A DNA stretch of 64,000 nt from Candidatus Woesearchaeota archaeon (lineage in GTDB: Archaea > Nanobdellota > Nanobdellia > Woesearchaeales > ARS49): positions 148,846 to 212,845 of the forward strand of contig JAFCDQ010000003.1 in NCBI GenBank assembly GCA_017609645.1. The letters are read 5' to 3'. The translations under genes and the position numbers were made by a program. Of this stretch, positions 11,242 through 55,004 are shown piece by piece (position 1 is the first letter of the stretch; the number at the start of each line of letters is the position of its first letter). The notes below the pieces were generated by a model. The model made no database searches. It had not been told where the DNA came from and worked only from the letters and a program-made list of their open reading frames with translations.

Positions 11242-11297
11242 ATTACCCCTTTTTTTACTTTTGCTGCCTTTTTTGAGCTTACTTTTATAGTCTTGCT

Positions 11298-11392
11298 AAC
11301 CGCGACAGGGGGTTGCCCCCTTCGGGGATGTCGCCACTCAAATAAACTTTGCAGTCAAGCGAATTGGCAGCAAAGTCTACCCCCTTGTTCCC
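11298..11392. other. GC-rich structured intergenic element (candidate small RNA, leader or attenuator) between the 297-aa membrane-protein gene and the 663-aa pilin-like gene
   Basis: The only strongly GC-rich island in the window. Outer stem GCGACA (11302-11307) pairs with TGTCGC (11329-11334) and encloses a GGGGG-UUG-CCCCC hairpin (11308-11320). That hairpin competes with a CCC-UUCG-GGG tetraloop hairpin (11318-11327). A second 7-bp stem ACTTTGC/GCAAAGT (11346-11352 / 11370-11376) has a 17-nt loop. I found no tRNA cloverleaf. Confidence 0.35.
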
Positions 11393-34981: not shown

Positions 34982-35038
34982 TTACTTTAATAGGATTAGA
35001 TTGTTTTTAAAATTTTGCATATCAAAAAAAGAAGAAAT

Positions 35039-36100
35039 TCAAATAACTAAAACTTCTCCTAACTTTCCATCCTGAACCATCAATACCTTCATTGGAAGTT
35101 CTATCTTCTTCTCTTCATCATATTTTACTCCTTTAATTGCTAAATCATGTGAATTGACATAATCAATCAAGTCTAGTATATTTGATTCTGCATTGTTGCA
35201 AAGAACTTCTGCAAACATATAACCATATGCTGAGTAAACATTTGGTTCTTCTGAATATTTTTCTTTAAATCCTGATTGAAATGCAGGATCATATTCAATC
35301 TTTGCTATGCCTGTAAAATACACTCCTTCTAAGATATCTTCAAACTCTTTTACTTGGTCTTCTTCAACATCAGATCCTATTATTATCATGCCTTTATACT
35401 CTCTTTCTTTCAATTCTTTTACGATCTTGAAATTGACTGACGGTTTCATTGTTGAAACAAAGACAAATTCTGGATTTTTCTCAATTATTTTTGTTGTTAT
35501 TGTATAAAATTCACTATCTTTTACATTTATTTTACTTACGTCTAACAGATTAAGATTAAATTCTTCTGAAATCTTTGAAAGAAGTTCATTTATTGATTCT
35601 CCTACCGCATCATTTGCTAAAATAGAGTAAAAACTCTTCTTATTTTGCTTAACAGGAAATTCAAATGATTTCTTTAACTGATAATAAGGGCTTGGATAAT
35701 TACATATCATGTTTTCATATTCTAAGAATGAATCAGAACACATTGACATTGCTATGAAAGTATATCTTTTCTTATCTCCTTGTGCAGAATACAGTGTTTC
35801 TGAAGCCGCAGGTCCAAAAGGTCCATAAAAAGTATTAATTCCATCTACGCTAGACAATTTCTTGAAAGCATTGATTGTCTCTTTTGGCTGTCCTTTGTCA
35901 TCTTCAATAACAAATGCACAATCCTGCTCTGAACTGTAGAGATTAATCCCTTTAACTACATCATTTCCAAAGTTAGCAAAATCTCCGCTTAAAGGCAAGA
36001 TTGCTCCTATTTTTACACCTTGTGAGATAGGTAAAAGTAAAATAACACATAAAATCGCTATGATTAATAAAATTCCAATAATCCAAAGTTTTTTAGCCAT
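35039..36100 (-). CDS. LivK-like periplasmic substrate-binding protein, membrane-anchored
   Basis: N-terminal TM anchor followed by GVKIGAILPLSGDFANFG, typical of type I PBPs of the Liv family. Confidence 0.7.
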   Translation of the reverse strand: MAKKLWIIGILLIIAILCVILLLPISQGVKIGAILPLSGDFANFGNDVVKGINLYSSEQDCAFVIEDDKGQPKETINAFKKLSSVDGINTFYGPFGPAASETLYSAQGDKKRYTFIAMSMCSDSFLEYENMICNYPSPYYQLKKSFEFPVKQNKKSFYSILANDAVGESINELLSKISEEFNLNLLDVSKINVKDSEFYTITTKIIEKNPEFVFVSTMKPSVNFKIVKELKEREYKGMIIIGSDVEEDQVKEFEDILEGVYFTGIAKIEYDPAFQSGFKEKYSEEPNVYSAYGYMFAEVLCNNAESNILDLIDYVNSHDLAIKGVKYDEEKKIELPMKVLMVQDGKLGEVLVI

Positions 36101-36195
36101 GTGTAAAAAAAGTAAATAAAGGTATAAATAAGTATTCGTAAAAATTTACTAAGAAAAGTAGAAAAACGAACAAATCTTTGCTAATTTTAGTAAAA

Positions 36196-36203
36196 TTTAA
36201 ATA
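36196..36203 (+). promoter_or_regulatory. Candidate TATA box (TTTAAATA) 23 nt upstream of the ATG at 36227
   Basis: Same 8-mer and spacing as upstream of the genes at 1143 and 49035. Confidence 0.3.
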
Positions 36204-36226
36204 AGAATTACTTTTCTTAGACTAAT

Positions 36227-37177
36227 ATGAAATTAAAACTAGATAAAATAGATAAGAAGCTGTTGAGTTATTTATTTCATAACTTCAGAAAACCTATAAC
36301 TCAGATTGCTAAGAATTGCAGGATTTCTAGAGAGCAGGCAGAATATAGAATAAAGAAATATGAAAAATCAGGCTTGATTAACAGATATTTAACAGCTTTT
36401 AATTTATACATGTTTGGATACAGAGAACATTATACTTTGAGGTTGAGAGTTAAGAATCCTAAATCAAAAAATTTAGACAAATTATGCAATAAAAATATAT
36501 TAATATTCACCAGACTTCATTCTTTTGGTGAATGGGATTATATTTTGGCAATTTTTGCAAAAAATAAAACAGATTTCCTTAATTTCATTTCAACATTATT
36601 TAATTCATGGAAAGAAGACCTTCTTGACTACAGCATTTTCGAACCAACAGAAGTGCATTTTTATCCTCTAAAGATATTTGGTAAAAGAGAAGACGACAAA
36701 ACTCTGAGTTTTAAAGAAGATAAAGAGATTAAATTTGATGTTTTAGATAAAAAGCTCATGACAATTCTTGCTAAGAATGCTGATATCAAAATTGTTGATT
36801 TGGCAAGAAAACTCAAAGAAAAAGTAAAGACAATTAGTTACAGATTAAAAAGATTAGAGAAAAATATCATCGTAGGATATAGAATTTTCCTGGATTTAAG
36901 CAAAATAGGTTATAACCTAGCACAATTATCAATTAAATTAAATGATTTGTCAGATTCAACAGTAAGACAATTAAGACAATACGCAAAGCAAAGAGAAAGC
37001 GTGCATGCATTTAATTTAGGTATAGGAAAATATAACACAATGTTTCAAATTATTTATCAAAATCCTAAAGAAGTTAATGAAGAGATAAATAAATTAAAAG
37101 AAATATTCAAAGAAAAGATCATAGAATTTGATGTGACTTTTATTGATAAAGAATTAAGTCCCACATTATATCCTTAA
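36227..37177 (+). CDS. Tandem-duplicated Lrp/AsnC-family transcriptional regulator (two complete HTH plus RAM modules in one 316-aa chain)
   Basis: Both halves carry the AsnC-type HTH pattern (KIDKKLLSYL...IAKNCRISREQAEYRIKKYEKSGLI and VLDKKLMTILAKNADIKIVDLARKLKEKVKTISYRLKRLEKNIIVGY). Confidence 0.8.
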   Translation: MKLKLDKIDKKLLSYLFHNFRKPITQIAKNCRISREQAEYRIKKYEKSGLINRYLTAFNLYMFGYREHYTLRLRVKNPKSKNLDKLCNKNILIFTRLHSFGEWDYILAIFAKNKTDFLNFISTLFNSWKEDLLDYSIFEPTEVHFYPLKIFGKREDDKTLSFKEDKEIKFDVLDKKLMTILAKNADIKIVDLARKLKEKVKTISYRLKRLEKNIIVGYRIFLDLSKIGYNLAQLSIKLNDLSDSTVRQLRQYAKQRESVHAFNLGIGKYNTMFQIIYQNPKEVNEEINKLKEIFKEKIIEFDVTFIDKELSPTLYP

Positions 37178-38251
37178 CGGAACAATCTCTCCATCCTTTA
37201 TCTGCCACCACATGAACTTTCTTATCCCATCTCCTTTCTCGTCAATACTAAATATTCCACTCACACCTTCTCTATTCTCAATGTCATAAAGATATTCTTT
37301 CAAACAATTTGAATCTTCACACTTCTTTAAAGCATCATATAAAACCATGTAAGTATCATATCCTAAAGCTCCATACATCTCTTCTGGAATCTTTTCTCCG
37401 TATACTGCTTCATAATCAGCTAAGAATGTCTGCATTTTAGAAGAATCTAAATCATACTCATAAGTTATCACAATTAATCCTTCAGCAGTATCTCCCATTA
37501 AATTTTTGAGAACTTGTCTAGAAAAGAATGCTTCATTTCCTATTAATTGAGTTTCAATTCCTAACTCCTTTGCTTGTTTTACCAATAAAGTTGCTGAGAT
37601 GGGAGATTGTACTAAGAATAAAATAGCATCGGGATTTGTATTTTCTATTTTTGAAAGTTGGAGTTTAACATCTTTATCTCCTGAATCAAAATATTCAATC
37701 CCTGTAACCTCCTCTTCATAAACTTTTACAAAAGAATCTTTCCATCCGACAGCATAATCTGTATTTTCTACAATTATTCCTATCTTGCTATTTTTTTTAA
37801 TCATATTTGCTGTTTTCTCTGCAAATAAATCTGCTGAAGAAGATATTCTAAAAACATGATCTCCTGCGTCTGATATAGCAGGAGCACTTGCTACAGAAGA
37901 TATCAAGATTTTTTCTTCAGTTAATGGTGCAATAGCTAATGTTGATCCTCCGCAGATTGCTGAAACAATAATATCTACATTATTAACATCTAATAATTTC
38001 TTAGCAGCTGTAACTCCTTCTTTCGGTATGCATTTGCCGTCTTCAAATATAACTTCAATTTCTTTGCCATCTATTGAATGAAACTGTTTATTAGCAAGTT
38101 CAAATGAATTTTTAATATAAACTCCTGGATTTGCTACAGGACCGGTTAAAGGCCCAATAAAACCTATTTTGATTGTTTTCTCTTCAGGAACACAACTGAT
38201 TAAAAACAATGTTAAGATCATTAAACATAATATTTTCTTCATTTTAACCAC
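37166..38251 (-). CDS. LivK-like substrate-binding lipoprotein
   Basis: Lipobox LISC followed by KIGFIGPLTGPVANPG; 361 aa. Confidence 0.75.
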   Translation of the reverse strand: MVKMKKILCLMILTLFLISCVPEEKTIKIGFIGPLTGPVANPGVYIKNSFELANKQFHSIDGKEIEVIFEDGKCIPKEGVTAAKKLLDVNNVDIIVSAICGGSTLAIAPLTEEKILISSVASAPAISDAGDHVFRISSSADLFAEKTANMIKKNSKIGIIVENTDYAVGWKDSFVKVYEEEVTGIEYFDSGDKDVKLQLSKIENTNPDAILFLVQSPISATLLVKQAKELGIETQLIGNEAFFSRQVLKNLMGDTAEGLIVITYEYDLDSSKMQTFLADYEAVYGEKIPEEMYGALGYDTYMVLYDALKKCEDSNCLKEYLYDIENREGVSGIFSIDEKGDGIRKFMWWQIKDGEIVPLRI

Positions 38252-38349
38252 CTAGAAATAGTGTTATCGACGAGATATTTAAGTTTATGTTGTAGAAAAT
38301 CTACTACAATAAAGAAAGATTTATATATCTACTCCTCATATTATCTAGT

Positions 38350-39081
38350 ATGGTAACAAAAGAAGAAGCATTAAAAGAACTGAATTTAAGCGATAAAGAG
38401 GTAAAAGTATATCTATCATTATTAATGCTGGGCCAATCTACTGCTAACTCTATAGCAAAAAAAGCCAGATTAAACAGAGTCACAACTTATGATATTCTTA
38501 AAGCTCTGCTAGAAAGAGGTTTTGTTTCTTATGTTATCAAATCAGGCGTTAAACATTTTGAAGCAGTTGACCCTTCTAAATTTTCAGACACATTAAAAGA
38601 AAAACAAGAAAAAATCAAGGCAATTATGCCAGAATTAAAAGCAATAAAAGCGTCTTTGACAAAAAAACCTCAAGTAGAGATGTTTGAAGAGATCAAAGGT
38701 TTGAAATCAATCTTTAATGATATTCTTAAAGAAAATAAAGAGACTTTGTTTATAGGGGATCCTAAGATGTTAGATAAACTTCAATTTTATTTCCCTCATT
38801 TTATCAAACAAAAGAGAAAACAAGGCATATTCTCTAAAGTAATCACTTTTGACTGTCCTTCTATGAGAAAATACAAGAAACAATCCCCTAAAAAATACCT
38901 TAATATGAAATTCATAAAACAAGAAATAGAAATGACTAAAGTGATTTATGGCAATAAAGTTTCTTTCTTAACCTTTAAGGAAAAGAATTCTATTGGAATA
39001 TTGATTAATAATAAAGATATAGCTGATACTGAAAGAAAATTATTTGATATGTTGTGGAAACAAGCTCATTCTCCTAAATAA
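38350..39081 (+). CDS. TrmB-family transcriptional regulator
   Basis: N-terminal HTH LSDKEVKVYLSLLMLGQSTANSIAKKARLNRVTTYDILKALLERGFV matches HTH_TrmB; 243 aa. Confidence 0.7.
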   Translation: MVTKEEALKELNLSDKEVKVYLSLLMLGQSTANSIAKKARLNRVTTYDILKALLERGFVSYVIKSGVKHFEAVDPSKFSDTLKEKQEKIKAIMPELKAIKASLTKKPQVEMFEEIKGLKSIFNDILKENKETLFIGDPKMLDKLQFYFPHFIKQKRKQGIFSKVITFDCPSMRKYKKQSPKKYLNMKFIKQEIEMTKVIYGNKVSFLTFKEKNSIGILINNKDIADTERKLFDMLWKQAHSPK

Positions 39082-39785
39082 GCATCCAGCACTTTCTTAT
39101 TATTTTGTATTTGTTTAGGTTTGCCCGACGCTATAACTTCTCCTGCATCTAAGACAAATATATGATCTACTAAATCCATAACGAAGTTCATGTCATGTTC
39201 AATCAAAAACACTGTTTCTCCTTTTTTGTTTAAATTTTGAATTATTTTTTTTATTTGTTTCCTTAACTTTGGATTAACTCCAGCTACTGGCTCATCCAGC
39301 ATCAATAAATCATGTGGTTTGGCTAAAGCAACGCCTAAATCTAATAACTTCCTTTGTCCATATGATAAATCACTTCCTAAAGTATGTAATGGCTTAGTCA
39401 ATCCTATCAAATTCATTATTTCTTTTATTTTCCATTCAACATCTTTTTCTTTTGCAAACATTGATTCATCATTTGTTGACAAAGCCATCATGAAATGATC
39501 TTTTATTGTTAAATTCTTGAATAATCGAGGATCTTGAAATGTTCGAGAAATTCCCATTTTAGCGACTTTATTAGGTCTAAATTTATCAATTCGTTCTTGT
39601 TTAAATTTTATAAATCCTGAATTTGGTTTTATCAATCTTGAAATAACATCAAATAATGTTGTTTTTCCAGATCCATTTGGACCTATGAGCGCTGTAATTT
39701 TATTTTTCTTAATTCCTAAACTACATTTATTTAATGCTCTTACTCCTCCAAAGTTTTTAGTTATTTCATGCGCTTCCAATATCAT
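39066..39785 (-). CDS. livG: Branched-chain amino acid ABC transporter ATP-binding protein (LivG-like)
   Basis: Walker A GPNGSGKTT, signature LSYGQRK and Walker B LLMLDEP. Confidence 0.85.
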   Translation of the reverse strand: MILEAHEITKNFGGVRALNKCSLGIKKNKITALIGPNGSGKTTLFDVISRLIKPNSGFIKFKQERIDKFRPNKVAKMGISRTFQDPRLFKNLTIKDHFMMALSTNDESMFAKEKDVEWKIKEIMNLIGLTKPLHTLGSDLSYGQRKLLDLGVALAKPHDLLMLDEPVAGVNPKLRKQIKKIIQNLNKKGETVFLIEHDMNFVMDLVDHIFVLDAGEVIASGKPKQIQNNKKVLDAYLGE

Positions 39786-40654
39786 TCGAGATCAATCCTC
39801 CCAAATAATCCTTTTGGTCTATACAATAATATTCCTAATAATATCAATGCATAGAATATTTGTCTTAATGGTCCTAGTACTGTGCTTGGCAAATACAAAA
39901 ACCTCAATGCTTCTGGGATTAATATAATAATAAAAGTAGCTACTATTGTGCCTTTGATTGACGCTATTCCTCCAACTATTACTATTGTAAATATTAAGAT
40001 TATTTCAGCTAATGAAAAACTGCTTGGATCAATATAAGTTATGTAAGATGCAAATAAGCTTCCTGCTATTCCTGCAAAGAATGCGCTCAGCATCATTGAT
40101 TTTGCTTTTAATTTGAATGTATCTTTTCCTAAAACTTTTAAGCCTATTTCATCATCTCTCACGCCTTGTAACAATCTTCCAAATGGGCTTTTGACTATTT
40201 TATATATTAAAAACACTGTTATAACAGCTAATATTGTTACAAAGATGAAATAAGGCAGTAAGCCGCTGATTTTAAATCCAAATATTACTGGTTTTGGAAT
40301 TCCTGGTATTCCTAATGGTCCTCGAGTTAATTCTGTCAAGTTCAACATTAATGAATAGATTACAAAACTAAATCCTAATGTTGCTAATGCTAAATAATCT
40401 CCTTTTAATTTCCTTGTTGCCAGAACTAGTAAAAATCCAAATATAGCCGCTATTAAGCCTGATATAAAAAAAGCCATAATAAATGAAACTCCTGCTTTTA
40501 ATAATAAGGCAGACGTATAAGCGCCTATTCCAAAGAATGCTACATGTCCTAAATTTAATAATCCTGTAAAACCTAATGCTAAATTCAAACTCACTCCCAG
40601 AATTATGTAAATCGCAATCAAAATCCCAATATGCAGCAAATAAGATTCTATCAT
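39782..40654 (-). CDS. livM: Branched-chain amino acid ABC transporter permease (LivM-like)
   Basis: Polytopic membrane protein; operon position between livH and livG with 4-nt overlaps. Confidence 0.8.
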   Translation of the reverse strand: MIESYLLHIGILIAIYIILGVSLNLALGFTGLLNLGHVAFFGIGAYTSALLLKAGVSFIMAFFISGLIAAIFGFLLVLATRKLKGDYLALATLGFSFVIYSLMLNLTELTRGPLGIPGIPKPVIFGFKISGLLPYFIFVTILAVITVFLIYKIVKSPFGRLLQGVRDDEIGLKVLGKDTFKLKAKSMMLSAFFAGIAGSLFASYITYIDPSSFSLAEIILIFTIVIVGGIASIKGTIVATFIIILIPEALRFLYLPSTVLGPLRQIFYALILLGILLYRPKGLFGRIDLE

Positions 40655-41538
40655 TTCTTCACTCCTTTATTTAATCCAAACAAGCCTGTCGGTTTGAATA
40701 ATAAAAACAAGAATAACAGTAAGAATGTTATTGCATTTTTATATCCTGACGGCAAGAACCATACTCCAAAATTTTCTGCGCCTCCAATAATATAGCTTCC
40801 TAATACTGCAGCAGGCACTGATGTTATTCCTCCTATTACTGCTCCTGTGAAGCCTTTTATCATCAGGCCCATTCCCATTGTTGGTTCTAGGTTTTGTTCC
40901 ATTCCTATTAGTATTCCAGCAAATCCTGCCATTACTGTTCCTAAAATAAATGCTAATGCCATGATTTTTTTAGAGTTTAATCCCATGATTTCTGATAATT
41001 CTGGATTGTCTGCTACTGCTCTCATATCTCTTCCTATTCTTATTTTATGCATGAATAACCATAATAAAACTAATAATAACACTGACGCAATTATTATTAC
41101 TAATTGCAATGGTGTTATGACCGCTCCTAAGAATTTGATTACATGAACTCCTTTGATATAACCTATTGTTTTTACATCTGCTCCATAAGCCATCAAAATT
41201 AGATTTTCAAATAATATCAGCAATCCTACACTTGCTATCAATAAAACTATGCTTGATGATTTTCTTTTCATTAAGGGGCTGTATATTCCTTTATACATCA
41301 AGTAGCCAAATAATCCTGTTATGATTAAAACTAAAATACAGCTGATTAAGAAAGGTATATGTAATAATGAGTACATCTGGAAGAGCATATATGCTCCTAT
41401 TACGACACTCACTCCGTGTGCAAAATGCATAAATCTGCTTGTTGAATATATTAAACTAAATCCAGAAGCCACTAATGCGTATATGCTTCCTGCTATTAAT
41501 GAGTTAACCAGCAACTGAACAAATATATTAAATGCCAT
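40651..41538 (-). CDS. livH: Branched-chain amino acid ABC transporter permease (LivH-like)
   Basis: Polytopic membrane protein; first gene of the livHMG block. Confidence 0.8.
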   Translation of the reverse strand: MAFNIFVQLLVNSLIAGSIYALVASGFSLIYSTSRFMHFAHGVSVVIGAYMLFQMYSLLHIPFLISCILVLIITGLFGYLMYKGIYSPLMKRKSSSIVLLIASVGLLILFENLILMAYGADVKTIGYIKGVHVIKFLGAVITPLQLVIIIASVLLLVLLWLFMHKIRIGRDMRAVADNPELSEIMGLNSKKIMALAFILGTVMAGFAGILIGMEQNLEPTMGMGLMIKGFTGAVIGGITSVPAAVLGSYIIGGAENFGVWFLPSGYKNAITFLLLFLFLLFKPTGLFGLNKGVKK

Positions 41539-41687
41539 TATTTCCTTTTTCTTTTAAATTCAGGCATATTTGTTTTTAAAATTTTGCATATCAGAAGAAG
41601 GGAAAAATAAAATTTAATGCACTAAACGTATTTAAATTTTTAATTGAGCCAATCTCTTCGCATTTTTAATAAAAACTTTTTTAAATG

Positions 41688-41701
41688 CCGAATATATACG
41701 G
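41688..41701 (+). promoter_or_regulatory. Candidate operator CCGAATATATACGG between the TATA-like TTTTTTAAAT and the probable start codon of the HTH_10 regulator
   Basis: Imperfect palindrome. A related copy, CCGAATATGTTCGG, lies at 42380-42393 upstream of the adjacent LivK-like gene. Confidence 0.4.
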
Positions 41702-41708
41702 TTATTGT

Positions 41709-42368
41709 ATGTGGTATATAAAATTCAAAATAAAACATAGTGATTGTGTTTATGCGCCAGAATTAGAAAAGTTAAAGCTTTCAGTATTTTTCTATCCATT
41801 AGGAAATTATAAAAAAAAGGGCTTTATTTTTACTTCGGCTCTTCAAAAAATTTCTGGAAAAGCAAATTCCATTAAAAAATATTTTACTTATCTAAAAAAG
41901 CATAAGAATACTCTAAGAATAGAACAATATGAGAATACTATTTTTACATTAGTTAAACATAAAAAAGTGAAAACAACTTATGAAACAATGTATAATCCTG
42001 CTTTAATATATCCTGCTCCTGCTTTTTTAGACAAAAAAGGATTTGAAATTTGGGAAATTGCTTGCTGGGACAGGAAACCATTAGAAACTTTAATCAGTGC
42101 AATGTCAAAAAGTAAGACAACAATCAGTTTTGAACTTCTTTCTTTTGTAAAAAGAACCCTGCATGAGGTATATATCCTTAATTTGCTTCCAAAATTAAGT
42201 CCAAAACAAAGAGAGGCGATTGAATTAGCTTACAAAGAAGGATATTATGAATATCCCAAAAAAACAGATCTTAATAAGCTTGCAAAAATGATGAAGGTTG
42301 GAAAGTCAACATTTCAAGAGCATCTAAAAAAAGCTGAAAAAAAGATTATTCCCAGATTAATTGAATAA
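41709..42368 (+). CDS. Transcriptional regulator with a C-terminal HTH_10 (bacterio-opsin-activator-type) domain
   Basis: C-terminus LSPKQREAIELAYKEGYYEYPKKTDLNKLAKMMKVGKSTFQEHLKKAEKKII. I chose the Met at 41709 (MWYIKFKIKH) as the start because it aligns with the paralog N-terminus MWIAKFKFKH; the track begins at the ATG at 41685. Confidence 0.7.
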   Translation: MWYIKFKIKHSDCVYAPELEKLKLSVFFYPLGNYKKKGFIFTSALQKISGKANSIKKYFTYLKKHKNTLRIEQYENTIFTLVKHKKVKTTYETMYNPALIYPAPAFLDKKGFEIWEIACWDRKPLETLISAMSKSKTTISFELLSFVKRTLHEVYILNLLPKLSPKQREAIELAYKEGYYEYPKKTDLNKLAKMMKVGKSTFQEHLKKAEKKIIPRLIE

Positions 42369-42379
42369 ATTTTAGAATA

Positions 42380-42393
42380 CCGAATATGTTCGG
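42380..42393 (+). promoter_or_regulatory. Second copy of the CCGAATAT-N-T-CGG motif (CCGAATATGTTCGG), about 85 nt upstream of the LivK-like gene at 42479
   Basis: Inverted-repeat arms CCGAA/TTCGG, preceded by the TATA-like TTTTAGAATA. Confidence 0.4.
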
Positions 42394-42478
42394 ATAAAAT
42401 GTTTTCTACTGCAAACTATCTTCTAAATAACAAAATGAATTGTTACGGGAAAATTTGATGGAAATATAAGGTAAAAAA

Positions 42479-43600
42479 ATGATGAAAAAAATTTTTGCAA
42501 TCATTCTAACATTCCTATTAACCTTAACATTTCTAGCAGGATGTTCACCAGTTAATCAAGAAGAGACTATTAAAGTTGGATTTGTATCTACTCTTTCAGG
42601 TGAAGCAGGTTCTTGGGGTCAACAAGTAAAAAAAGGTTTTGAATTTGCTCTGGAAGAGATTAATACTAACAAGCTTTTAGGAGACAAAAAACTTGAAATT
42701 TTCTATGAAGATGATTTTTGTGATGCGACAAACGGATTAACAGCATTTAATAAATTAATAGATGTTAATGATGTTCAGATAATTGTTGGAACTGTTTGCT
42801 CTTCTGTTGCAATGGCAGTATCAGAGAAGACTCAAAGTAATCATATATTATATCTAGCTTCTGCAGCTACAAATCCTGAAGTAACAGAACAAGGAGATTT
42901 TATATTTAGATTATGGGCTTCAGATGACTATGATGCAAAAGCTATCGCTCAATTTGCTGTTAATGAATTAAGATTAGAAACATTTGCAGTTACTTATGTT
43001 AATGATAATCCTGCAGGCCCCATATTAAAAGATGCTTTTAAAGAAACAATTCTAAAAAAAGGAAAAAAGATTTTGGCAGAAGAATCCTATTCTTCAAAAG
43101 AGACTGATTTTAAAACACATTTAATTAAGATTTTACAAAAAAATCCTGAAGCAGTTTATTTAATGACTAATCCAGAAAGGACTGATTTAATCATAAATCA
43201 AATAAGACAACTAGGTTTTGAGGGCATAATATTTGCTTACGGACCTTCGATCACTTCTGAAGGCGTGGTTGAAAAGATTAAAGATAAAAAAGATATATAT
43301 TATGCTTTGCCGGTTTCAAAACAGGAGACACTATTTTGGAATAAATATAAAGAGAAAAAAGGCGAAGATGCAGATTCTCTCGTGGCTTTAGGTTATGACA
43401 GTATGAAAATTCTTGTTGATGGAATTAAAAAATGTGATGTTGATACTGGGTGTTTAAGAGAATATCTGCTAAAGCTAAAAGATTATGAATCTGCAAGAGG
43501 TAAATTAAACTTTGACTCTGAAGGAGCTTTGACTAATATTGAATTTGAAGTGAAAAAAATAAAATTTAAACCTTACCCAATTCTCCATTCACAACTTTGA
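42479..43600 (+). CDS. LivK-like substrate-binding lipoprotein
   Basis: Lipobox LAGC followed by IKVGFVSTLSGEAGSWG; 373 aa. Confidence 0.8.
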   Translation: MMKKIFAIILTFLLTLTFLAGCSPVNQEETIKVGFVSTLSGEAGSWGQQVKKGFEFALEEINTNKLLGDKKLEIFYEDDFCDATNGLTAFNKLIDVNDVQIIVGTVCSSVAMAVSEKTQSNHILYLASAATNPEVTEQGDFIFRLWASDDYDAKAIAQFAVNELRLETFAVTYVNDNPAGPILKDAFKETILKKGKKILAEESYSSKETDFKTHLIKILQKNPEAVYLMTNPERTDLIINQIRQLGFEGIIFAYGPSITSEGVVEKIKDKKDIYYALPVSKQETLFWNKYKEKKGEDADSLVALGYDSMKILVDGIKKCDVDTGCLREYLLKLKDYESARGKLNFDSEGALTNIEFEVKKIKFKPYPILHSQL

Positions 43601-44681
43601 ATGAATCAAAATCTACCAAGATATCTCCGTTCTCATCAAATGTTATCTCTTGCATTAATCCTTTCCATCCTTTTGTGTTATATAATTCTTTTTTGATGCA
43701 ATCAGTATCTTCTCCGCATTTTTCCATTTTTTCTGCTAATAGAAATAATCCGTCATATAATGTTGCACAAAACACTCCTACATCACATCCAATTGTTTCT
43801 TGTAAATATTTGAAACCTTCTGTTGTTTCATCAAAATGCTGTTTTTGTATAATCATTCCTTCCATATAATCTTTTCCCTCATTTAAAGTATCTCCTAAAC
43901 TAAACATTTCAGCTCCGTAAAGTTTTGCTGAAATATCTTGTTCTTTAACTTGTTTTGCAAAAAGAATTGCTACTGGAATTGTTTGCGGAACTAAATATAT
44001 TGCATCAGGTTCTGATTGTTTTATCTTTAACAATTGCACTCTGAATTCTTTTTCATCAGAATTTACTAGCTCATCTGCAACTATTGTTCCGCCGAATTTA
44101 ACAATTTCTTCTTTGAATTTTTCTCTTAATGCTTGGGCATAGTCAGTATTTTCAGAAAGTACCGCTATTTTTTTGTTTTCTTGTTCAATAACTTTTTGTG
44201 CAGCTACTATTGCTTGATGAACATCTGAACCAACATTTCTAAATATATATTCTCCTGCAGTTGTGATTTCAGGGCTTGTTGATGCTGGCGATAAGAATAT
44301 TATTTTTTTTTCTTCAACAAAAGGCGCAGCTCCTAATGTTTCGCCTGAACAAATTCCTCCAAAAATAGTTTTCACGCCTTTTAAATTAACTAATGTTTGT
44401 GCTGCTGTTAACCCATCTTTTGGATTGCATTTGCCATCTTCAAAAAGCAGATTGAATCTGATATTTTTTTTCTCTTTCTTCAATTTTTCATTTAAGTCTT
44501 CTAATGCTTTCTGTGCTATTTTTTGCCCAATCAAACCATGAAAAGCACCATCTCCTGTTAATGGAAATATTGCGCCTATCTTATAGACTTTAACTTTTTC
44601 TTTTATTGGTTGAGCAATTTGTGTTGTAGTACAAGCTGCCAAGAACAATAAAATCATTATGATTGTGATTATTTTTTTCAT
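43566..44681 (-). CDS. LivK-like substrate-binding lipoprotein (close paralog of 45771..46901)
   Basis: Lipobox LAAC followed by a TTTQ linker and YKIGAIFPLTGDGAFHG. Its C-terminal 50 aa are nearly identical to the paralog. Confidence 0.8.
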   Translation of the reverse strand: MKKIITIIMILLFLAACTTTQIAQPIKEKVKVYKIGAIFPLTGDGAFHGLIGQKIAQKALEDLNEKLKKEKKNIRFNLLFEDGKCNPKDGLTAAQTLVNLKGVKTIFGGICSGETLGAAPFVEEKKIIFLSPASTSPEITTAGEYIFRNVGSDVHQAIVAAQKVIEQENKKIAVLSENTDYAQALREKFKEEIVKFGGTIVADELVNSDEKEFRVQLLKIKQSEPDAIYLVPQTIPVAILFAKQVKEQDISAKLYGAEMFSLGDTLNEGKDYMEGMIIQKQHFDETTEGFKYLQETIGCDVGVFCATLYDGLFLLAEKMEKCGEDTDCIKKELYNTKGWKGLMQEITFDENGDILVDFDSFKVVNGELGKV

Positions 44682-44787
44682 TTTTACCTTCCCTTAAGTT
44701 ATAAAAATTAATAGTATCTACTTGTTAATTAAATATTTTATTGATTTTTTTAACAAAATGGAAATATTTATAAAGAATTAATACTTT

Positions 44788-45762
44788 TTGTTAAGTAATA
44801 TGCATAAAATAGATTTAAAAGATAAAAAAATACTTTATCAATTAGATCTTAATTGCAGGCAGTCTTTTCAAAAAATTGGCAAAAAAGTCAGGTTAAGTAA
44901 AGAATCAGTTTTTTATAGAATAAAAAAACTTGAAGAACAAGGAATTATTGAAAGTTATTCTACATTGCTTGATATTGGAAAGCTAGGTTATACAAGCTTT
45001 AGAATTTTTCTAAAATTTCAAAACACTACTTCTTCAAAAGAAGAAGAAATAATTAATTATCTTAAAAAAGAAAAAATAGTTGGCTGGTTTGTAACAATTG
45101 AAGGTAATTGGAATGTGAATCTTTGGTTAATGTCTAAAAATGTTGAAGACTTTGATTCTTTCTGGATAAAATTCAAGGAAAAATACATTAATTATATTGC
45201 TAAACAGAAGCTTGCTGTGTTTACTAACATCACATATTTTTCTAAATCATATCTAATAAATAAATTCAATAAAGACAAATGCAGGTTTGTATCTCCACCA
45301 AAACAAGGAAAAATTGATAAAATTAATTTAGAAATTTTAAAACTCTTAGCATCAAATGCTAGACTCCCTACAGTAGATATTGCTCAAAAACTTAAAATTT
45401 CAGCCAAAACTGTTGCTCATAGAATTAAAGATTTAGAAAAAAAGAAAATAATTGTCGGTTTTAAACCATTACTTAATCTTAATAAATTAGGATATTCTTA
45501 TTATAAAGCGCATTTTAAACTGCATAATTTAACTAAAGAAAAAGAAAAAGAAGTAAGGTATTTTATTTTTCAACAGCCCAATATTGTTTATGATAATATA
45601 GCTATTGGGGGCTCTGATCTAGAAATTGATATTCAAATAGAAAATAAAGAAAAACTTCGTGAATTAATCAAAGAAATAAAAGACAAATTCTCTTTAATTA
45701 TCCAGGATTCTGAAATACTGCATTATTTGAAAGAGTATAAGTATGTTACTTTTCCTGTTTAA
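44788..45762 (+). CDS. Tandem-duplicated Lrp/AsnC-family transcriptional regulator (324 aa)
   Basis: Two AsnC-type HTH modules (KILYQLDLNCRQSFQKIGKKVRLSKESVFYRIKKLEEQGII and LEILKLLASNARLPTVDIAQKLKISAKTVAHRIKDLEKKKIIVGF). Confidence 0.8.
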   Translation: MLSNMHKIDLKDKKILYQLDLNCRQSFQKIGKKVRLSKESVFYRIKKLEEQGIIESYSTLLDIGKLGYTSFRIFLKFQNTTSSKEEEIINYLKKEKIVGWFVTIEGNWNVNLWLMSKNVEDFDSFWIKFKEKYINYIAKQKLAVFTNITYFSKSYLINKFNKDKCRFVSPPKQGKIDKINLEILKLLASNARLPTVDIAQKLKISAKTVAHRIKDLEKKKIIVGFKPLLNLNKLGYSYYKAHFKLHNLTKEKEKEVRYFIFQQPNIVYDNIAIGGSDLEIDIQIENKEKLRELIKEIKDKFSLIIQDSEILHYLKEYKYVTFPV

Positions 45763-45770
45763 TGCAAAAA

Positions 45771-46901
45771 TTAAATCTTTACCAATTCTCCATCCACAAC
45801 TCTGAATGAATCATATTGAACTAAGATATCTCCATTGTCATCAAAAGTTATCTCTTGCATTAATCCTTTCCATCCTTTTGTATTGTACAATTCTTTCTTG
45901 ATGCAATCTGTATCTTCTCCGCATTTTTCCATTTTTTCTGCCAAAAGAAAAACTCCATCATAAATTGAAGCACAATATATCCCTAATTCGCATCCTGTCT
46001 CTTCTTGGACATACTTGAATTCTTCAGTAGTCTCATCAAAATGAGCTTTTTGAGTTATCATTCCTTCTAAATAATTCTTCCCCTTTTTCAAGGTGTCGCC
46101 AAAAGTAAAAGCTTCATTTCCGAAAAGTTGTGCTGATATTGTTTGTTCAGTTATTTGCTTAGCAAACATTATAGCTACACGAATATTCTGCGCATTTAAG
46201 TACAATGCATCAGGATTGGCTGTTTTTATTTTTATTAATTGAATTCTTATGTCTCTTTCATTAGAATTAACGACTTCATCAGCGACTATCTCTCCTCCTA
46301 GTTTTTTGATTTCTTCTTTAAATTTTTCTCTTAATGCTTGTGCATAATCAGTATTTTCTGAGAGTACTGCTATTTTTTTATTGCCCTCTCCTAAAATTTT
46401 CTTCGCAGCAACAACAGCTTGATATTCATCAGAACCAATATTTCTAAATATATAATCTCCTGCATTAGTAATCTCAGGGCTTGTTGACCCAGGGGATAAC
46501 ATTATTATTTTATTTTCTTCTGCAAATGGCGCAGCTCCTAATGTTTCGCCTGAACAAAATCCTCCAAAAATTACTTTTATATCTTTTAAATTAATTAGTG
46601 TTTGCGCTGCAGTTAATGCATCTTTTGGATTGCACCTACCATCTTCAAAAACTAGCTCAAATTTTATATTTTTATTTTCTACTTTTAATTTTTTATTTAA
46701 ATCTTCTAATGATTTTTGTATTACTTTTTGTGCAGGCATTCCATAAATAGAAGCATCACCTGTTAAAGGCAATATTAAACCTATTTTATATACTTTTGTA
46801 CCAGTTACTATAATTTCTTTTGATTTTGTTGCAACTTGAGTTGTAGTGCAAGCTGTAACTAAGAACAACATGATTAAAATTGTAAATAGGTTTTTTTTCA
46901 T
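45771..46901 (-). CDS. LivK-like substrate-binding lipoprotein (close paralog of 43566..44681)
   Basis: Lipobox VTAC followed by a TTTQ linker; the 3'-end nucleotide sequence is about 85-90% identical to 43566-43760. Confidence 0.8.
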   Translation of the reverse strand: MKKNLFTILIMLFLVTACTTTQVATKSKEIIVTGTKVYKIGLILPLTGDASIYGMPAQKVIQKSLEDLNKKLKVENKNIKFELVFEDGRCNPKDALTAAQTLINLKDIKVIFGGFCSGETLGAAPFAEENKIIMLSPGSTSPEITNAGDYIFRNIGSDEYQAVVAAKKILGEGNKKIAVLSENTDYAQALREKFKEEIKKLGGEIVADEVVNSNERDIRIQLIKIKTANPDALYLNAQNIRVAIMFAKQITEQTISAQLFGNEAFTFGDTLKKGKNYLEGMITQKAHFDETTEEFKYVQEETGCELGIYCASIYDGVFLLAEKMEKCGEDTDCIKKELYNTKGWKGLMQEITFDDNGDILVQYDSFRVVDGELVKI

Positions 46902-46980
46902 TTTTTGCCTACCTCAAGTTCTAATTTTTTATCTACCTTAAATTATTATTAATAAGTCAAAACTAAATATTTAATCTTTT

Positions 46981-46998
46981 TACCAAACATGTTTGGTA
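46981..46998. promoter_or_regulatory. Perfect 18-bp palindrome TACCAAACATGTTTGGTA between the HTH_10 regulator gene and the LivK-like gene at 45771..46901
   Basis: It is self-complementary over all 18 nt. A degenerate copy overlaps the regulator's own start codon at 47653-47669. Confidence 0.45.
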
Positions 46999-47002
46999 TT
47001 TT

Positions 47003-47653
47003 TTATTTAGAATAAGATAATAAGTTTGGAATAAGTTTCTCTTCAGCTACTCTTATATGCTGTTGATAAGTCGCTAAAGAAACTCCTGTAAGCTTAGCTA
47101 GTTTTCTTAAATCTGTTTTTTTAGGAGTTTTATAATATCCTTCTTTTATTGCCAGTTCTATTGCTCTTTTTTGTTTTGCAGTTAAATCCGGCATTAGTTT
47201 TGGAAAAAACACATTGTCAATGTTTATTTTATTAAATTTTAATAATTCAAAATTTTTTATTCTTTTTTTGACTTTGTTAACAAATTTAGAAACTTCTTCT
47301 TTTTCCCAAGAAGCTATTTCCCACGTTTCATAGCCTTTATCATCGATTAATACTGGCTTGACAAAGATTATTTTTGGCGTATAAAACTCAACTGCTTTGA
47401 TTTGAGCTTTTTCTAAAAGGAAAAACATATCTCCTTTTTGTTCTAGTTTTATTACGTTTTTGTCTTTTTTTAAGTCTAAAACAAAATCAGTCATATTTGA
47501 AGGTCTGCCTGCCATATACTGCAAAGAAGATGTAACAGCTCTTCCTTTATCTTTAAAAACAGAAAAAACAACTCCTTGTATGGTTATCTTAAACTTTTCA
47601 CATCTATTCCCTATTATACAATCATGTTTAAACTTAAACTTTGCTATCCACAT
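47003..47653 (-). CDS. Transcriptional regulator with a C-terminal HTH_10 (bacterio-opsin-activator-type) domain; paralog of 41709..42368
   Basis: C-terminus LTAKQKRAIELAIKEGYYKTPKKTDLRKLAKLTGVSLATYQQHIRVAEEKLIP. Confidence 0.7.
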   Translation of the reverse strand: MWIAKFKFKHDCIIGNRCEKFKITIQGVVFSVFKDKGRAVTSSLQYMAGRPSNMTDFVLDLKKDKNVIKLEQKGDMFFLLEKAQIKAVEFYTPKIIFVKPVLIDDKGYETWEIASWEKEEVSKFVNKVKKRIKNFELLKFNKINIDNVFFPKLMPDLTAKQKRAIELAIKEGYYKTPKKTDLRKLAKLTGVSLATYQQHIRVAEEKLIPNLLSYSK

Positions 47654-47669
47654 ACAAACATGTATGGTA
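47653..47669. promoter_or_regulatory. Degenerate copy (TACAAACATGTATGGTA) of the 18-bp palindrome, placed between a TATA-like TTTATAAAA and the regulator's ATG
   Basis: Matches TACCAAACATGTTTGGTA at 15 of 18 positions and overlaps the start codon at 47653. Confidence 0.35.
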
Positions 47670-47757
47670 TTAGGTTTTATAAAAGTTTTGAAAAATTAGA
47701 AGGCCAATAAATTTTCTCTCATTTTACTAATAATTGTTCAAAGTTCCTGTTAAATGT

Positions 47758-48930
47758 TTAATTAAACTCAACTATTTCTCCTTTTTCTGCATCAATTATT
47801 TGTTTCATTGCAAAGTTTATTCCTTCTAGATCTCCGTTTTTATCAAACTCGTATTTTCCTATTACGCCATCATATTCTGGCATAGCATACAAATAATCTC
47901 TGATGCATTCTGTGTCAATTTTTCCGCAGGATTCTATTGCATTCTTGATTATGTAAACAGTGTCATATCTTGCTCCAATTTGATAATCGCTTGGGGGCTT
48001 AGAGTACTTGCTCAAGTATTTGTTCAAGAAACTGGTGGCTTTTGAATTGTTTTTGCTTAGTCCAGGCGTATCTACAAATTTAAAGCCATTTAATGCATTC
48101 CCTGCATTTGTTAATGCATCTCCGCTGCTAAAAGCAAAATTGCCGTAATATGGAATATTTATGAGAAGTTCTTTTGCCTGCTTGACTGCTAAACCTCCTG
48201 AAAGTCCTGTTTGCGGGTTAAAGAAAATAGCTTCTGGCTTTGATGCTTTTATTTTTGTTAATTGAATTCTATAATCTTTTGATTCCATCTCAAATATTTC
48301 ATCTGCTATTATTTCTCCACCTAGTTTTTTAAATCGTTGCAAAAATACTTTTCTTACGCCTTGTGAATAATCTTTATTTTCTGTTAAAACTGCAACTTTT
48401 TTATAGCCGTCATTAAAAATCATTTCAGCGATTGCTTCGCCCCCTTCAACATCTGAAGGTGAATTTCTGAAAATAAAATCTCCTGCATTTGTTATATCTG
48501 AGCTTGAAGAAAATGCTGATAATACAATAACTTTGTTTTGTTCAGCTATTGGTGCTATTGCTAATGTTTCTCCGCTGCATGCACCTCCTAGAATAATCTT
48601 GACATTATCAACATTGATTAACTTATTTGCCGCTGTTGTAGCATCTTTTCCACTGCATTTTCCATCTTCATAGATAACTTCAACTTTCATGCCATTGATT
48701 CCTCCTTTAGAATTGATTTCTTCTAAAGCCAGTTCAATAGCATTTTTCTCTCCTTGGCCATAAGATGCTCCGTCACCTGTAAGAGGAATTATAGCGCCTA
48801 TTTTATATATTTTAATCCCTGTAACAATCACTTCCTTTGCTGGCTGTGCAACTTGAGTTGTCGTGCACGCTGTCAAAAATAATATAAGAAATATTATTAC
48901 ATTTATTTTGTTTATTTTTTTCAGGTTCAT
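47758..48930 (-). CDS. LivK-like substrate-binding lipoprotein
   Basis: The track ORF begins at a TTG at 49002. The ATG at 48930 gives MNLKKINKINVIIFLILFLTAC with lipobox LTAC followed by a TTTQ linker. Confidence 0.8.
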   Translation of the reverse strand: MNLKKINKINVIIFLILFLTACTTTQVAQPAKEVIVTGIKIYKIGAIIPLTGDGASYGQGEKNAIELALEEINSKGGINGMKVEVIYEDGKCSGKDATTAANKLINVDNVKIILGGACSGETLAIAPIAEQNKVIVLSAFSSSSDITNAGDFIFRNSPSDVEGGEAIAEMIFNDGYKKVAVLTENKDYSQGVRKVFLQRFKKLGGEIIADEIFEMESKDYRIQLTKIKASKPEAIFFNPQTGLSGGLAVKQAKELLINIPYYGNFAFSSGDALTNAGNALNGFKFVDTPGLSKNNSKATSFLNKYLSKYSKPPSDYQIGARYDTVYIIKNAIESCGKIDTECIRDYLYAMPEYDGVIGKYEFDKNGDLEGINFAMKQIIDAEKGEIVEFN

Positions 48931-48970
48931 TTTTTTCACCTTTAAAATTAAATTTTTTTCATAATTAAAG

Positions 48971-48988
48971 AATTTTCTATAGAAAATT
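48971..48988. promoter_or_regulatory. Perfect 18-bp AT-rich palindrome AATTTTCTATAGAAAATT in the divergent promoter region between the LivK-like gene and the tandem Lrp gene; overlapped by a second inverted repeat AAATTTTGC-N6-GCAAAATTT (48984-49007)
   Basis: Both are self-complementary. A TATA-like TTTAAATA at 49005-49012 lies 22 nt before the Lrp ATG. Confidence 0.35.
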
Positions 48989-49034
48989 TTGCATAACCGC
49001 AAAATTTAAATATTATTATGTAGTTTCTGCATAT

Positions 49035-50009
49035 ATGAAGCTTGATTTGATTGATAGAAAGATTTTATATGAACTGGATTTTAATGCAAGAATGCCTTTG
49101 ACTAAATTAGCTAAAAAGCTTAGGATTTCAAGGCAGGTTGCTGATTATAGGATTAAGAATTTAGAAAAAAAAGGCATAATAGAAGAATATTTTGTCATTG
49201 TTGATAATGCAAAACTTGGATTAAATTATTTTAGGTTAGTCATCCAAATGACAGATTTTCCAAAAATTAATGAAATTCTTGAATTTGGTAAACAAAATCC
49301 TAATTTGGCTTTTTTAGGCCTTCTTGATGGAATGTGGAATTTATGTATAGGAATTTGGGTCAAGGATATTTCAGAATTTGAAGACTTTTTACGATATGTT
49401 CTTTATAAATACGGAAATTATATTTCAGATAAAGAAGTTTCAATCGGTTTTCAAATCAGACATTTTCAGTCAGGTTTTTTATTAGACAAAAAAGATAATA
49501 AGGAATTCTTAACTGGTGGAAAATTATTTAAAATTAAGCTTGATGATATTGATAAGAAATTACTTATATTATTAAGTAAAAATGCCAGGGAATCAATTTG
49601 TAGTTTAAGCAAAAAGCTTAATATCAGTGAAAGAAGTGCAGCATATAGGATTAGACAATTAAAAAAGAGAAAAGTTATTCTTGGTTATAAAACAAAAATT
49701 GATTATAAAAAACTAGGTTTTTTTAATTATAAAGTTTTTTTTAATTTTAAAAAATTAGAAAAAAAAGATGAAACCGCTTTAATTTTTTATCTCAAACAAC
49801 TGCCAAATTGTATTTATGTGACAAAACCAATAGGAATGGCAGATTTAGAATGTGAACTTCTGATTAGAACAAGAGAAGACTTTTTTAATATAATGCAGGA
49901 AATCATGGAAAAATTTGGATATATCATTAAAAAATACGAACACTTAGTTATTTACAAAGAGCTAATATTAAGATATATTCCTGTAAATTATGACTCTAAT
50001 AAAAAGTAA
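49035..50009 (+). CDS. Tandem-duplicated Lrp/AsnC-family transcriptional regulator (324 aa)
   Basis: Two AsnC-type HTH modules (KILYELDFNARMPLTKLAKKLRISRQVADYRIKNLEKKGII and LLILLSKNARESICSLSKKLNISERSAAYRIRQLKKRKVILGY). Confidence 0.8.
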   Translation: MKLDLIDRKILYELDFNARMPLTKLAKKLRISRQVADYRIKNLEKKGIIEEYFVIVDNAKLGLNYFRLVIQMTDFPKINEILEFGKQNPNLAFLGLLDGMWNLCIGIWVKDISEFEDFLRYVLYKYGNYISDKEVSIGFQIRHFQSGFLLDKKDNKEFLTGGKLFKIKLDDIDKKLLILLSKNARESICSLSKKLNISERSAAYRIRQLKKRKVILGYKTKIDYKKLGFFNYKVFFNFKKLEKKDETALIFYLKQLPNCIYVTKPIGMADLECELLIRTREDFFNIMQEIMEKFGYIIKKYEHLVIYKELILRYIPVNYDSNKK

Positions 50010-51984: not shown

Positions 51985-51986
51985 TT

Positions 51987-53633: not shown

Positions 53634-53671
53634 GCTTTCTCTCTATAAAATTTAAAATAAAAAAATAAAAT

Positions 53672-54988: not shown

Positions 54989-55004
54989 TTTTCCACCTCA
55001 AAAC

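Follow-up and report, generated by a model that had tools for sequence, protein, structure and literature searches.

A single HAAT-type importer core with six binding-protein genes, each beside a regulator gene, in a 64-kb stretch of a Woesearchaeota genome

How could one amino-acid importer be served by six binding proteins, each of them encoded beside a transcription regulator? This question is raised by a gene cluster at positions 34280-50009 of a 64-kb stretch of DNA (the window) from Candidatus Woesearchaeota archaeon (contig JAFCDQ010000003.1, positions 148,846 to 212,845). The cluster consists of 16 genes: livF, livH/M/G, six binding-protein genes (S1 to S6) and six regulator genes (R1 to R6). 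All 16 were found where a preliminary description of this DNA had placed them. We consider it fairly probable that the cluster encodes a single HAAT importer with interchangeable binding proteins, the genes of which are wired to different regulators.

DPANN archaea and Candidate Phyla Radiation (CPR) bacteria are generally without most biosynthetic pathways and must import their building blocks. To our knowledge, how they import so much with few transporter genes is poorly understood, and an economical solution would be a single translocator served by many binding proteins, each wired individually. It is textbook knowledge that an ATP-binding cassette (ABC) translocator may have several binding proteins and that a regulator may be encoded next to its transporter. 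New features here are the density, with six binding proteins and as many regulators from three families, the recurrent array architecture in DPANN and CPR, and the conserved regulator-plus-operator units with an exchanged neighbour. No description of CPR/DPANN binding-protein arrays with TrmB or Lrp was found in limited full-text literature searches.

One importer core

The window has a G+C content of about 30%, and the nearest homologues of its proteins are named Woesearchaeota, Pacearchaeota or 'Nanoarchaeota', which places the host among the DPANN archaea. Two BPD_transp_2 permeases, two ATPases (one with the LivG motif) and Peripla_BP_6 binding proteins were found, the composition of a HAAT importer (LivHMGF type, Transporter Classification (TC) 3.A.1.4). 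The core genes are as follows.

livF, 34280..34981, minus strand: the importer's second ATPase (Pfam ABC_tran, 118 bits)
livG, 39066..39785, minus strand: ATPase (Pfam ABC_tran and BCA_ABC_TP_C, the LivG-type C-terminal motif)
livM, 39782..40654, minus strand: permease (BPD_transp_2, 160 bits)
livH, 40651..41538, minus strand: permease (BPD_transp_2, 130 bits; NCBIfam LivH, 139 bits, under the curated cut-off)

When the window was searched with the cluster proteins using phmmer, no additional copy of any cluster gene was found, and the earlier claim of one LivFGHM set was confirmed for these 64 kb. The livF gene is physically detached from livHMG and is the sole LivF-like gene in the window (phmmer).

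Six binding proteins with different predicted pockets

Peripla_BP_6 was found above the Pfam cut-off in all six binding proteins (86 bits in S1, 135-201 bits in S2-S6), and their closest solved relatives are branched-chain amino-acid binding proteins.

S1, 35039..36100, minus strand: diverged binding protein with a hydrophobic membrane anchor, without lipobox (Peripla_BP_6, 86 bits)
S2, 37166..38251, minus strand: predicted lipoprotein, lipobox LISC (Peripla_BP_6, 150 bits)
S3, 42479..43600, plus strand: predicted lipoprotein, lipobox LAGC (Pfam and lipobox)
S4, 43566..44681, minus strand: predicted lipoprotein, lipobox LAAC (Pfam and lipobox)
S5, 45771..46901, minus strand: predicted lipoprotein, lipobox VTAC, paralog of S4 (Pfam and lipobox)
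S6, 47758..48930, minus strand: predicted lipoprotein, lipobox LTAC (Peripla_BP_6, 201 bits)

The lipobox was defined as [LVI][ASTVI][GAS]C behind an N-terminal hydrophobic segment, a criterion that predicts lipidation from sequence only. Six lipobox-anchored LivK-like proteins had been described preliminarily; the six family members were confirmed, but the motif is present only in S2-S6, and the N-terminal hydrophobic anchor of S1 looks uncleaved. From the lipobox position, ATG 48930 is the most likely start of S6 over TTG 49002, to which the open frame extends. The NCBIfam scores are far under the LivJ/K/H cut-offs (PRK15404, LivJ/K, has a cut-off of 477 bits; S2-S6 reached 95-142 bits and S1 had no match), and the cluster proteins are therefore family members, not orthologs.

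Pairwise protein identities among S1-S6 are 21-43%, with the exception of S4 and S5 (70% protein and 77% DNA identity). At these values, and with unrelated flanks, the earlier view of S4/S5 as a "very recent" duplication was overstated. Only the last ~170 nt of the two genes are 89-94% identical, possibly through gene conversion. S1 was also considered as a pseudogene or decayed copy; this was ruled out by full-length homologues at 33-56% identity (28 cluster representatives at E <= 1e-30), and S1 belongs to a conserved subfamily.

For the pocket comparison, the E. coli LivJ sequence was checked against PDB 1z15 and aligned with the six S proteins and 179 relatives. The aligned residues at LivJ positions 18/79/100-102/150/202/226/276 are given below.

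LivJ: Y/S/AAT/Y/Y/E/F
S1: F/P/SMC/V/M/S/Y
S2: P/G/VAS/Y/Q/E/Y
S3: W/S/AAT/A/N/G/L
S4: H/S/AST/Y/Q/E/F
S5: Y/S/GST/Y/Q/E/Y
S6: Y/S/FSS/Y/Q/F/Q

Six distinct residue sets are predicted, and even S4 and S5 differ at three positions. Near-identical redundant copies sharing one pocket, the case that the preliminary description had set against its own proposal, were not found. In the alignment, E226 and Y150 are kept in S2, S4 and S5, E226 is replaced in S3 and S6, and the LivJ pocket residues are lost in S1. E226 of LivJ is the acidic residue that binds the alpha-ammonium group; since S1, S3 and S6 have no acidic equivalent, they may bind ligands other than alpha-amino acids. The LivJ cysteine pair C53-C78 is retained in S2-S6 and absent from S1. 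Near the C-terminus of S2-S6, and not in S1, a second conserved cysteine pair was observed (KC-x5-6-C, e.g. EKCGEDTDC; alignment columns ~350-357), which may form another disulfide.

Three families of regulators beside the binding-protein genes

Each of the six binding-protein genes has its own regulator gene beside it, as had been reported preliminarily: three are tandem Lrp, one is TrmB-like and two are HTH_10 proteins.

R1, 36227..37177, plus strand: tandem Lrp/AsnC, divergent from S1 (two HTH_AsnC domains; NCBIfam AsnC over residues 166-293)
R2, 38350..39081, plus strand: TrmB-like, divergent from S2 (Pfam TrmB)
R3, 41709..42368, plus strand: HTH_10, divergent from livH and upstream of S3 (Pfam HTH_10, 69 bits)
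R4, 44788..45762, plus strand: tandem Lrp, divergent from S4 (two HTH_AsnC domains; alternative ATG at 44800)
R5, 47003..47653, minus strand: HTH_10, co-directional with S5 (Pfam HTH_10; two ferredoxin-like (ACT-like) N-terminal domains)
R6, 49035..50009, plus strand: tandem Lrp, divergent from S6 (two HTH_AsnC domains)

Gene orientations agreed with the earlier count of four divergent pairs (S1/R1, S2/R2, S4/R4 and S6/R6); the other two pairs are co-directional (R3>S3 and R5>S5). The start of R3 at 41709 was likewise retained (41685 being listed as an alternative). The 3' ends of three convergent gene pairs overlap, by 35 nt in S3/S4 (43566-43600), 12 nt in R1/S2 (37166-37177) and 16 nt in R2/livG (39066-39081).

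The Lrp/FFRP family is the classic type of amino-acid-responsive regulator. When the tandem-Lrp family profile was compared with the full-length LrpA, FL11, AsnC and Lrp structures, it aligned to them twice, and as judged from this alignment the tandem Lrp protein is two complete HTH+RAM modules in one chain. The two halves of R6 are 32% identical to each other. This build is common in DPANN (164 matches), and R4 is the best window match of most binding-protein-linked tandem Lrp genes in other DPANN loci. A role as NirDL/AhbA-type siroheme decarboxylase was rejected, as the Pfam/NCBIfam matches are weak and far below those to Lrp regulators.

R3 and R5 share 39% identity and have a C-terminal HTH_10 domain (Pfam, 58 and 69 bits for the two). 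The N-terminal part of R5 models as two ferredoxin-like (ACT-like) domains and not as Bat-type GAF/PAS sensor domains.

R2 (243 aa; model pLDDT 90.5) consists of a winged helix (PF01978), a coiled-coil dimerisation helix and the first (PLD-like) effector subdomain. In the predicted structure the C-terminal sugar-binding subdomain of TrmB/TrmBL1 is missing, a build that resembles TrmBL2. R2 is highly conserved (orthologs up to 85% identity). TrmBL2 does not bind sugar and is the most conserved TrmB paralog (PMC4158304). For the Lrp and HTH_10 proteins, control by a ligand is thus plausible; for R2 it is doubtful.

Candidate operators in the shared control regions

Each S gene shares a control region of about 85-125 nt with a different regulator gene. 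As read from the sequence itself, each S gene has its own TATA-like box and oligo-T run and appears to be a separate transcription unit.

The 14-nt HTH_10 palindrome CCRAAYATGTTYGG gave 11 strand matches in the window at <=2 mismatches against 1.83 expected, and 0 of 100 shuffles reached 11. Eight of the 11 matches represent four sites that flank exactly R3 and R5 (palindromes are listed here and below without strand).

41688..41701: HTH_10 palindrome CCGAATATATACGG, between the R3 TATA-like box and start codon, directly 5' of the start
42380..42393: HTH_10 palindrome CCGAATATGTTCGG, after the R3 stop codon, upstream of the S3 promoter
46983..46996: HTH_10 palindrome CCAAACATGTTTGG, after the R5 stop codon, upstream of the S5 promoter
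47654..47667: HTH_10 palindrome, between the R5 TATA-like box and start codon

The palindrome was also present at both positions around the R5 orthologs in three other loci (L085, L086 and L088). A further HTH_10-like site, at 56221-56234, falls within the purC-purE gene and was taken as chance.

A different palindrome was found between S2 and R2.

38290..38309: R2 palindrome TTGTAGAAAATCTACTACAA, flanked by the divergent TATA-like boxes of S2 and R2

It is nearly unchanged, together with both flanking TATA-like boxes, before the R2 orthologs in L090 and L091, and is likely to be the R2 operator. In 15 of 40 TrmB<>binding-protein intergenic regions of other genomes, TGT..N..ACA palindromes were observed, against 2.7±1.5 in shuffles (maximum 7 over 500 shuffles); the typical form is TGTTGTC-N8-GACAACA.

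The third set of elements concerns R6 and the importer core.

35001..35024, minus strand: livF promoter element TTGTTTTTAAAATTTTGCATATCA, 24 nt, 5' of livF
41570..41593, minus strand: livH promoter element, second copy of TTGTTTTTAAAATTTTGCATATCA, 5' of livH
48987-49004: R6 palindrome TTTTGCATAACCGCAAAA, directly upstream of the R6 TATA-like box
48983..49004: R6-site element AAAATTTTGCATAACCGCAAAA, 5' of the R6 TATA-like box; its left half is part of the livF/livH element

TTGTTTTTAAAATTTTGCATATCA has two exact copies in the window against 0 expected, and the similarity reaches 44 nt at 84%. As the identical 24-nt element precedes livF and livH, the split transporter core has one promoter type. 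The R6 palindrome and TATA-like box are conserved before a 65% identical R6 ortholog in L001. The left half of the R6 site, AAAATTTTGCATA, also lies in the livF/livH element (three exact window copies against 0.11 expected); this common half-site suggests that R6 controls S6, livHMG and livF jointly. A footprint of the R4 ortholog was also seen, weaker than that of R6. When a common tandem-Lrp operator was sought in 13 Lrp<>binding-protein regions, only AT-rich promoter-like similarity was obtained, inseparable from Lrp promoters.

The preliminary description had assumed that the regulators act at palindromes in the adjacent intergenic DNA. Such palindromes are over-represented (HTH_10 set) and conserved in other genomes, which is consistent with binding there.

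According to the favoured explanation, one LivHMGF translocator would be served by six surface-anchored binding proteins with different predicted pockets, all of which would dock to LivHM. The regulators would bind palindromic operators that travel with the regulator genes, would autoregulate, and would also control the neighbouring S genes because the control regions are shared. R2 would act on a bidirectional promoter from the palindrome between the divergent TATA-like boxes. For R3 and R5, autorepression is proposed through the site that separates TATA-like box and start codon, a position typical of repression, and control of S3 and S5 through the second palindrome, which precedes the S promoter. 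The R6 half-site in the livF and livHMG promoter element would tie the split core and S6 into one regulon. The outcome would be differential expression of binding proteins that feed one translocator, and a wider range of scavenged amino acids and related metabolites in an auxotrophic cell. TrmB is encoded in an ABC-transporter cluster and represses it via a palindrome at the binding-protein promoter, and the position of an archaeal TrmB-family site relative to the BRE (transcription factor B recognition element) and TATA box decides between activation and repression (PMC4158304).

Recurrence in related loci

When genomes were scanned with the S6/S5/S4/S2 alignment, 80 loci (L005-L084) with up to 54% identity were obtained, from DPANN archaea and, more often, from CPR/Patescibacteria. 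A metagenome scan with S5 gave two distant loci only. One to 12 detected binding-protein genes per locus are interleaved with exactly one LivH/M/G/F set (for example in L078, L049, L074 and L097), and more than one LivH or LivM was found in none of the 80 related loci.

The pairing of regulator and binding protein is not unique to the window, as adjacency at the family level recurs across these loci. A binding-protein gene directly flanks 42 of 48 TrmB-like and 10 of 15 tandem-Lrp genes, and 51 of these are divergent. Six TrmB<>binding-protein cassettes lie between livH and livM in L032, and L009 and L033 have similar chains. L051 (Iainarchaeon) repeats the orientation rule of the window, with HTH_10 co-directional and tandem Lrp divergent. 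Compact operons in which a tandem Lrp gene is divergent from a binding-protein gene and livHMGF are common in DPANN (L036, L041, L023 and L029), an arrangement that agrees with the suggested joint control of S6, livHMG and livF by R6. With loci assigned by record title, bacterial loci have only TrmB-like partners (36 of 145 binding proteins), and the partners in archaeal loci are tandem Lrp (10), TrmB-like (6) and HTH_10 (1) for 50 binding proteins. Among the loci seen, only the window has a regulator beside each of its six binding-protein genes together with a mixture of three regulator families.

Several observations were made on individual loci. Binding proteins of double or triple length (704-1072 aa), apparently two or three fused Peripla_BP_6 units, occur in several DPANN loci, and in five of these seven cases a tandem Lrp gene is the immediate divergent neighbour.

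L006: 7816-9966
L007: 7761-9872 and 9917-12139
L015: 4195-7410
L029: 8813-11029
L064: 6513-8678
L014: 15686-17872

In L051 (6500-7143), ~600 nt are apparently inserted between the HTH_10 gene and its binding-protein gene, with TCAAATACCTTTAACTTCAGCCG on both sides, and CCNNN-N4-NNNGG palindromes (CCGGTAATCACCGG and CCGCTGGACAGCGG) precede both binding-protein genes. Regulator-free arrays with one LivH, LivM, LivG and LivF are exemplified by L078 (~12-15 binding-protein open reading frames) and L097 (2719-15548; 9).

Close orthologs of the regulators and alternative explanations

The main alternative is that the adjacency is incidental: conserved, autoregulated regulators have their own regulons, the S genes landed beside them in a small rearranging genome, and the palindromes are for autoregulation only. 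We regard this as unlikely. Observations in its favour come from the closest available orthologs of R6 (65% identity), R5 (63-73%) and R2 (77-83%) and from an R4-like protein (46%), within an overall range of ortholog identities of 46-85%. All of them are beside unrelated genes, among which are those for a polyprenyl synthase, an uncharacterised protein of 266 aa, a methyltransferase, another uncharacterised protein with an insertion sequence (IS) element, a giant peptidase C1 protein and a class-I aminoacyl-tRNA synthetase. As a result, the one-to-one pairs are not co-inherited, and the regulators may be broad regulators with other targets. The operators travel with the regulator gene and not with the binding-protein gene. 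The build of R2 is also that of TrmBL2, a global chromatin-type regulator (PMC4158304).

Other observations weaken this alternative. In the window, six of six binding-protein genes abut a regulator, the family-level pairing in the 80 loci is strongly enriched and orientation-specific, and L051, from a distant lineage, has the same orientation rules. Moreover, the control regions are ~100 nt long, and the R2 site or the sites upstream of the S3 and S5 promoters can hardly spare the S gene. The modularity of one sensor and one regulator that had been proposed for this locus is thus supported as a pairing that is complete in the window and recurs in the family, but not as an inheritance of fixed pairs among close orthologs. 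Since the regulators with their operators are conserved while the neighbouring gene differs, regulator and operator form the unit and the 'cargo' changes.

Further observations weigh against a single importer with individually wired binding proteins, in addition to the neighbours of the close orthologs. In the related loci 142 of 195 binding proteins are unpaired, and many arrays are regulator-free (L078, L097 and L074). No fixed relation exists between the subfamily of a binding protein and the family of its regulator: the partner of S6-like proteins is TrmB in CPR and Lrp in DPANN, and the best relative of S3 pairs with TrmB. The pocket residues are taken from sequence alignment at 21-38% identity, not from structures. 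R2 may sense no ligand, as its model is without the sugar-binding subdomain. Concerning R6, the definition of the AAAATTTTGCATA motif is post hoc, and its excess loses significance once one mismatch is allowed (5 copies against 1.68 expected; 4 of 100 shuffles reach 5). Finally, another translocator could be encoded elsewhere in the genome.

This last point leads to the second alternative, in which some S proteins work with a different translocator, or buffer or scavenge ligands at the cell surface. We give it little credit. The view is limited to 64 kb of the genome, S1, S3 and S6 are without the acidic equivalent of LivJ E226, and nearly all pocket and cysteine residues are missing from S1. 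However, the arrays in all related loci are interleaved with exactly one LivHMGF set, and S1 itself lies directly between livF and the remaining cluster.

It is very unlikely that the S proteins are variable surface lipoproteins for other purposes, such as host attachment or evasion of receptor-using viruses. They are surface-exposed and highly diverged, their copy number varies from 1 to 12 detected per locus, and homologues are common to DPANN and CPR episymbionts. Against this stand the retention of the Peripla_BP_6 fold, of the cysteine pair of LivJ and of a large part of the framework for alpha-amino-acid binding in S2, S4 and S5, the tight linkage to LivHMGF, and the lack of any sign of cassette switching or hypervariable tracts in the window.

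That the binding proteins are extracellular sensors signalling to the adjacent regulators, as the preliminary description had also considered, is hardly credible: the fold is common to receptor ligand-binding domains (ANF_receptor and GABA-B receptor matches), but no histidine kinase, chemoreceptor or membrane-bound regulator gene was found in or beside the cluster, Pfam gave only DNA-binding domains in R1-R6 (no transmembrane prediction was run), and the LivHMGF core is complete.

Two observations on the ortholog loci were made in addition. In other Woesearchaeota, genes for a 266-269-aa protein and a ~101-aa protein, neither of which has a Pfam match, come after the conserved R5-type HTH_10 gene and its two palindromes; these proteins may be ancestral targets of the R5-type regulator. 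The gene for the longer protein was located as follows.

L086: 6713-7522
L088: 6710-7510

In L091 (6036-11139), a tandem Lrp gene, the R2-orthologous TrmB-like gene and the gene for a 1136-aa peptidase C1 protein are arranged head-to-tail, with an R2-type palindrome upstream of the Lrp gene.

A possible general architecture in DPANN and CPR

Beyond the single importer with interchangeable binding proteins proposed for the window, we tentatively suggest a wider scheme, which is possible but which we would not call probable. DPANN and CPR would combine one HAAT translocator with expandable binding-protein arrays (up to 12 detected per locus), the regulator and its operators would be portable 'expression sockets' for inserted binding-protein genes, and binding-protein and transporter genes would cross the boundary between archaea and bacteria with regulators swapped for lineage-appropriate ones. 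If this is true, a binding-protein gene inserted beside a regulator-plus-operator unit would acquire the control of that unit, and ultra-small symbionts of both domains would scavenge amino acids and related metabolites broadly.

A layout found in archaea and bacteria alike is relevant to the exchange of genes among ultra-small symbionts that co-occur. Both DPANN and CPR/Patescibacteria contain nearest relatives of S6 (49-54% identity) and LivH/LivM, which suggests transfer of transporter genes between the two, with the reservation that record titles are possibly unreliable for some metagenome bins. For further studies, the locus offers six binding proteins and candidate operators for three types of regulator that have been little studied (fused double Lrp, short TrmB-like and ACT-like HTH_10).

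Comparison with known systems

In E. coli LivJ/LivK-LivHMGF and HisJ/LAO-HisQMP, one ABC translocator works with two binding proteins of different specificity. The cluster resembles E. coli Liv in its BPD_transp_2 permeases, its LivG/LivF ATPases and its Peripla_BP_6 proteins with the C53-C78 pair (S2-S6), and both E. coli systems in having several binding proteins on one membrane complex. It differs from E. coli Liv in being archaeal, in its detached livF and in having six binding proteins instead of two, which are predicted to be lipid- or membrane-anchored. Each S gene has a neighbouring regulator here, whereas E. coli Liv is under global Lrp control.

Archaeal Lrp/AsnC proteins are typically autoregulated and linked to genes of amino-acid transport or metabolism. 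The tandem Lrp proteins share the HTH_AsnC + RAM module with LrpA, FL11/PH1519, LysM and Sa-Lrp, but have two complete modules fused in a ~320-aa chain.

As in the TrmB systems of Thermococcus litoralis and Pyrococcus furiosus, a regulator is encoded inside an ABC-transporter cluster with a palindrome at a binding-protein promoter (PMC4158304), the R2 site being predicted. Winged helix, coiled coil and first effector subdomain are common to R2 and TrmB. In contrast to TrmB, R2 is without the sugar-binding subdomain and the transporter is HAAT, not sugar CUT1; the predicted R2 operator is TTGTAG-N8-CTACAA compared with TACT-N3-AGTA for TrmB, and R2 orthologs elsewhere have other neighbours.

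The DPANN/CPR arrays (L005-L084 and L097) have the same binding-protein subfamily (up to 50-54% identity), a single interleaved LivHMGF and divergent regulator<>binding-protein cassettes. Unlike the window, bacterial loci have TrmB-like regulators only or none, and archaeal loci mostly have one tandem Lrp gene ahead of the operon.

Other features of the window

The cluster is flanked by a glutamyl-tRNA synthetase (GluRS)/methyltransferase gene pair on one side and by a purine-biosynthesis cluster on the other. The latter, directly downstream at 50024-56708, encodes a PurH-like AICARFT, an archaeal PurO-type IMP cyclohydrolase, adenylosuccinate lyase, PurD and a fused PurC-PurE. As nucleotide synthesis is often missing from DPANN genomes, this cluster deserves mention. 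A 768-aa protein encoded at 27644-29950 has a Ser/Thr protein kinase domain of eukaryotic type and, in addition, many TPR repeats. Lastly, a 2282-aa open reading frame was found at 2405-9253, followed by further large genes at 9250-20187.

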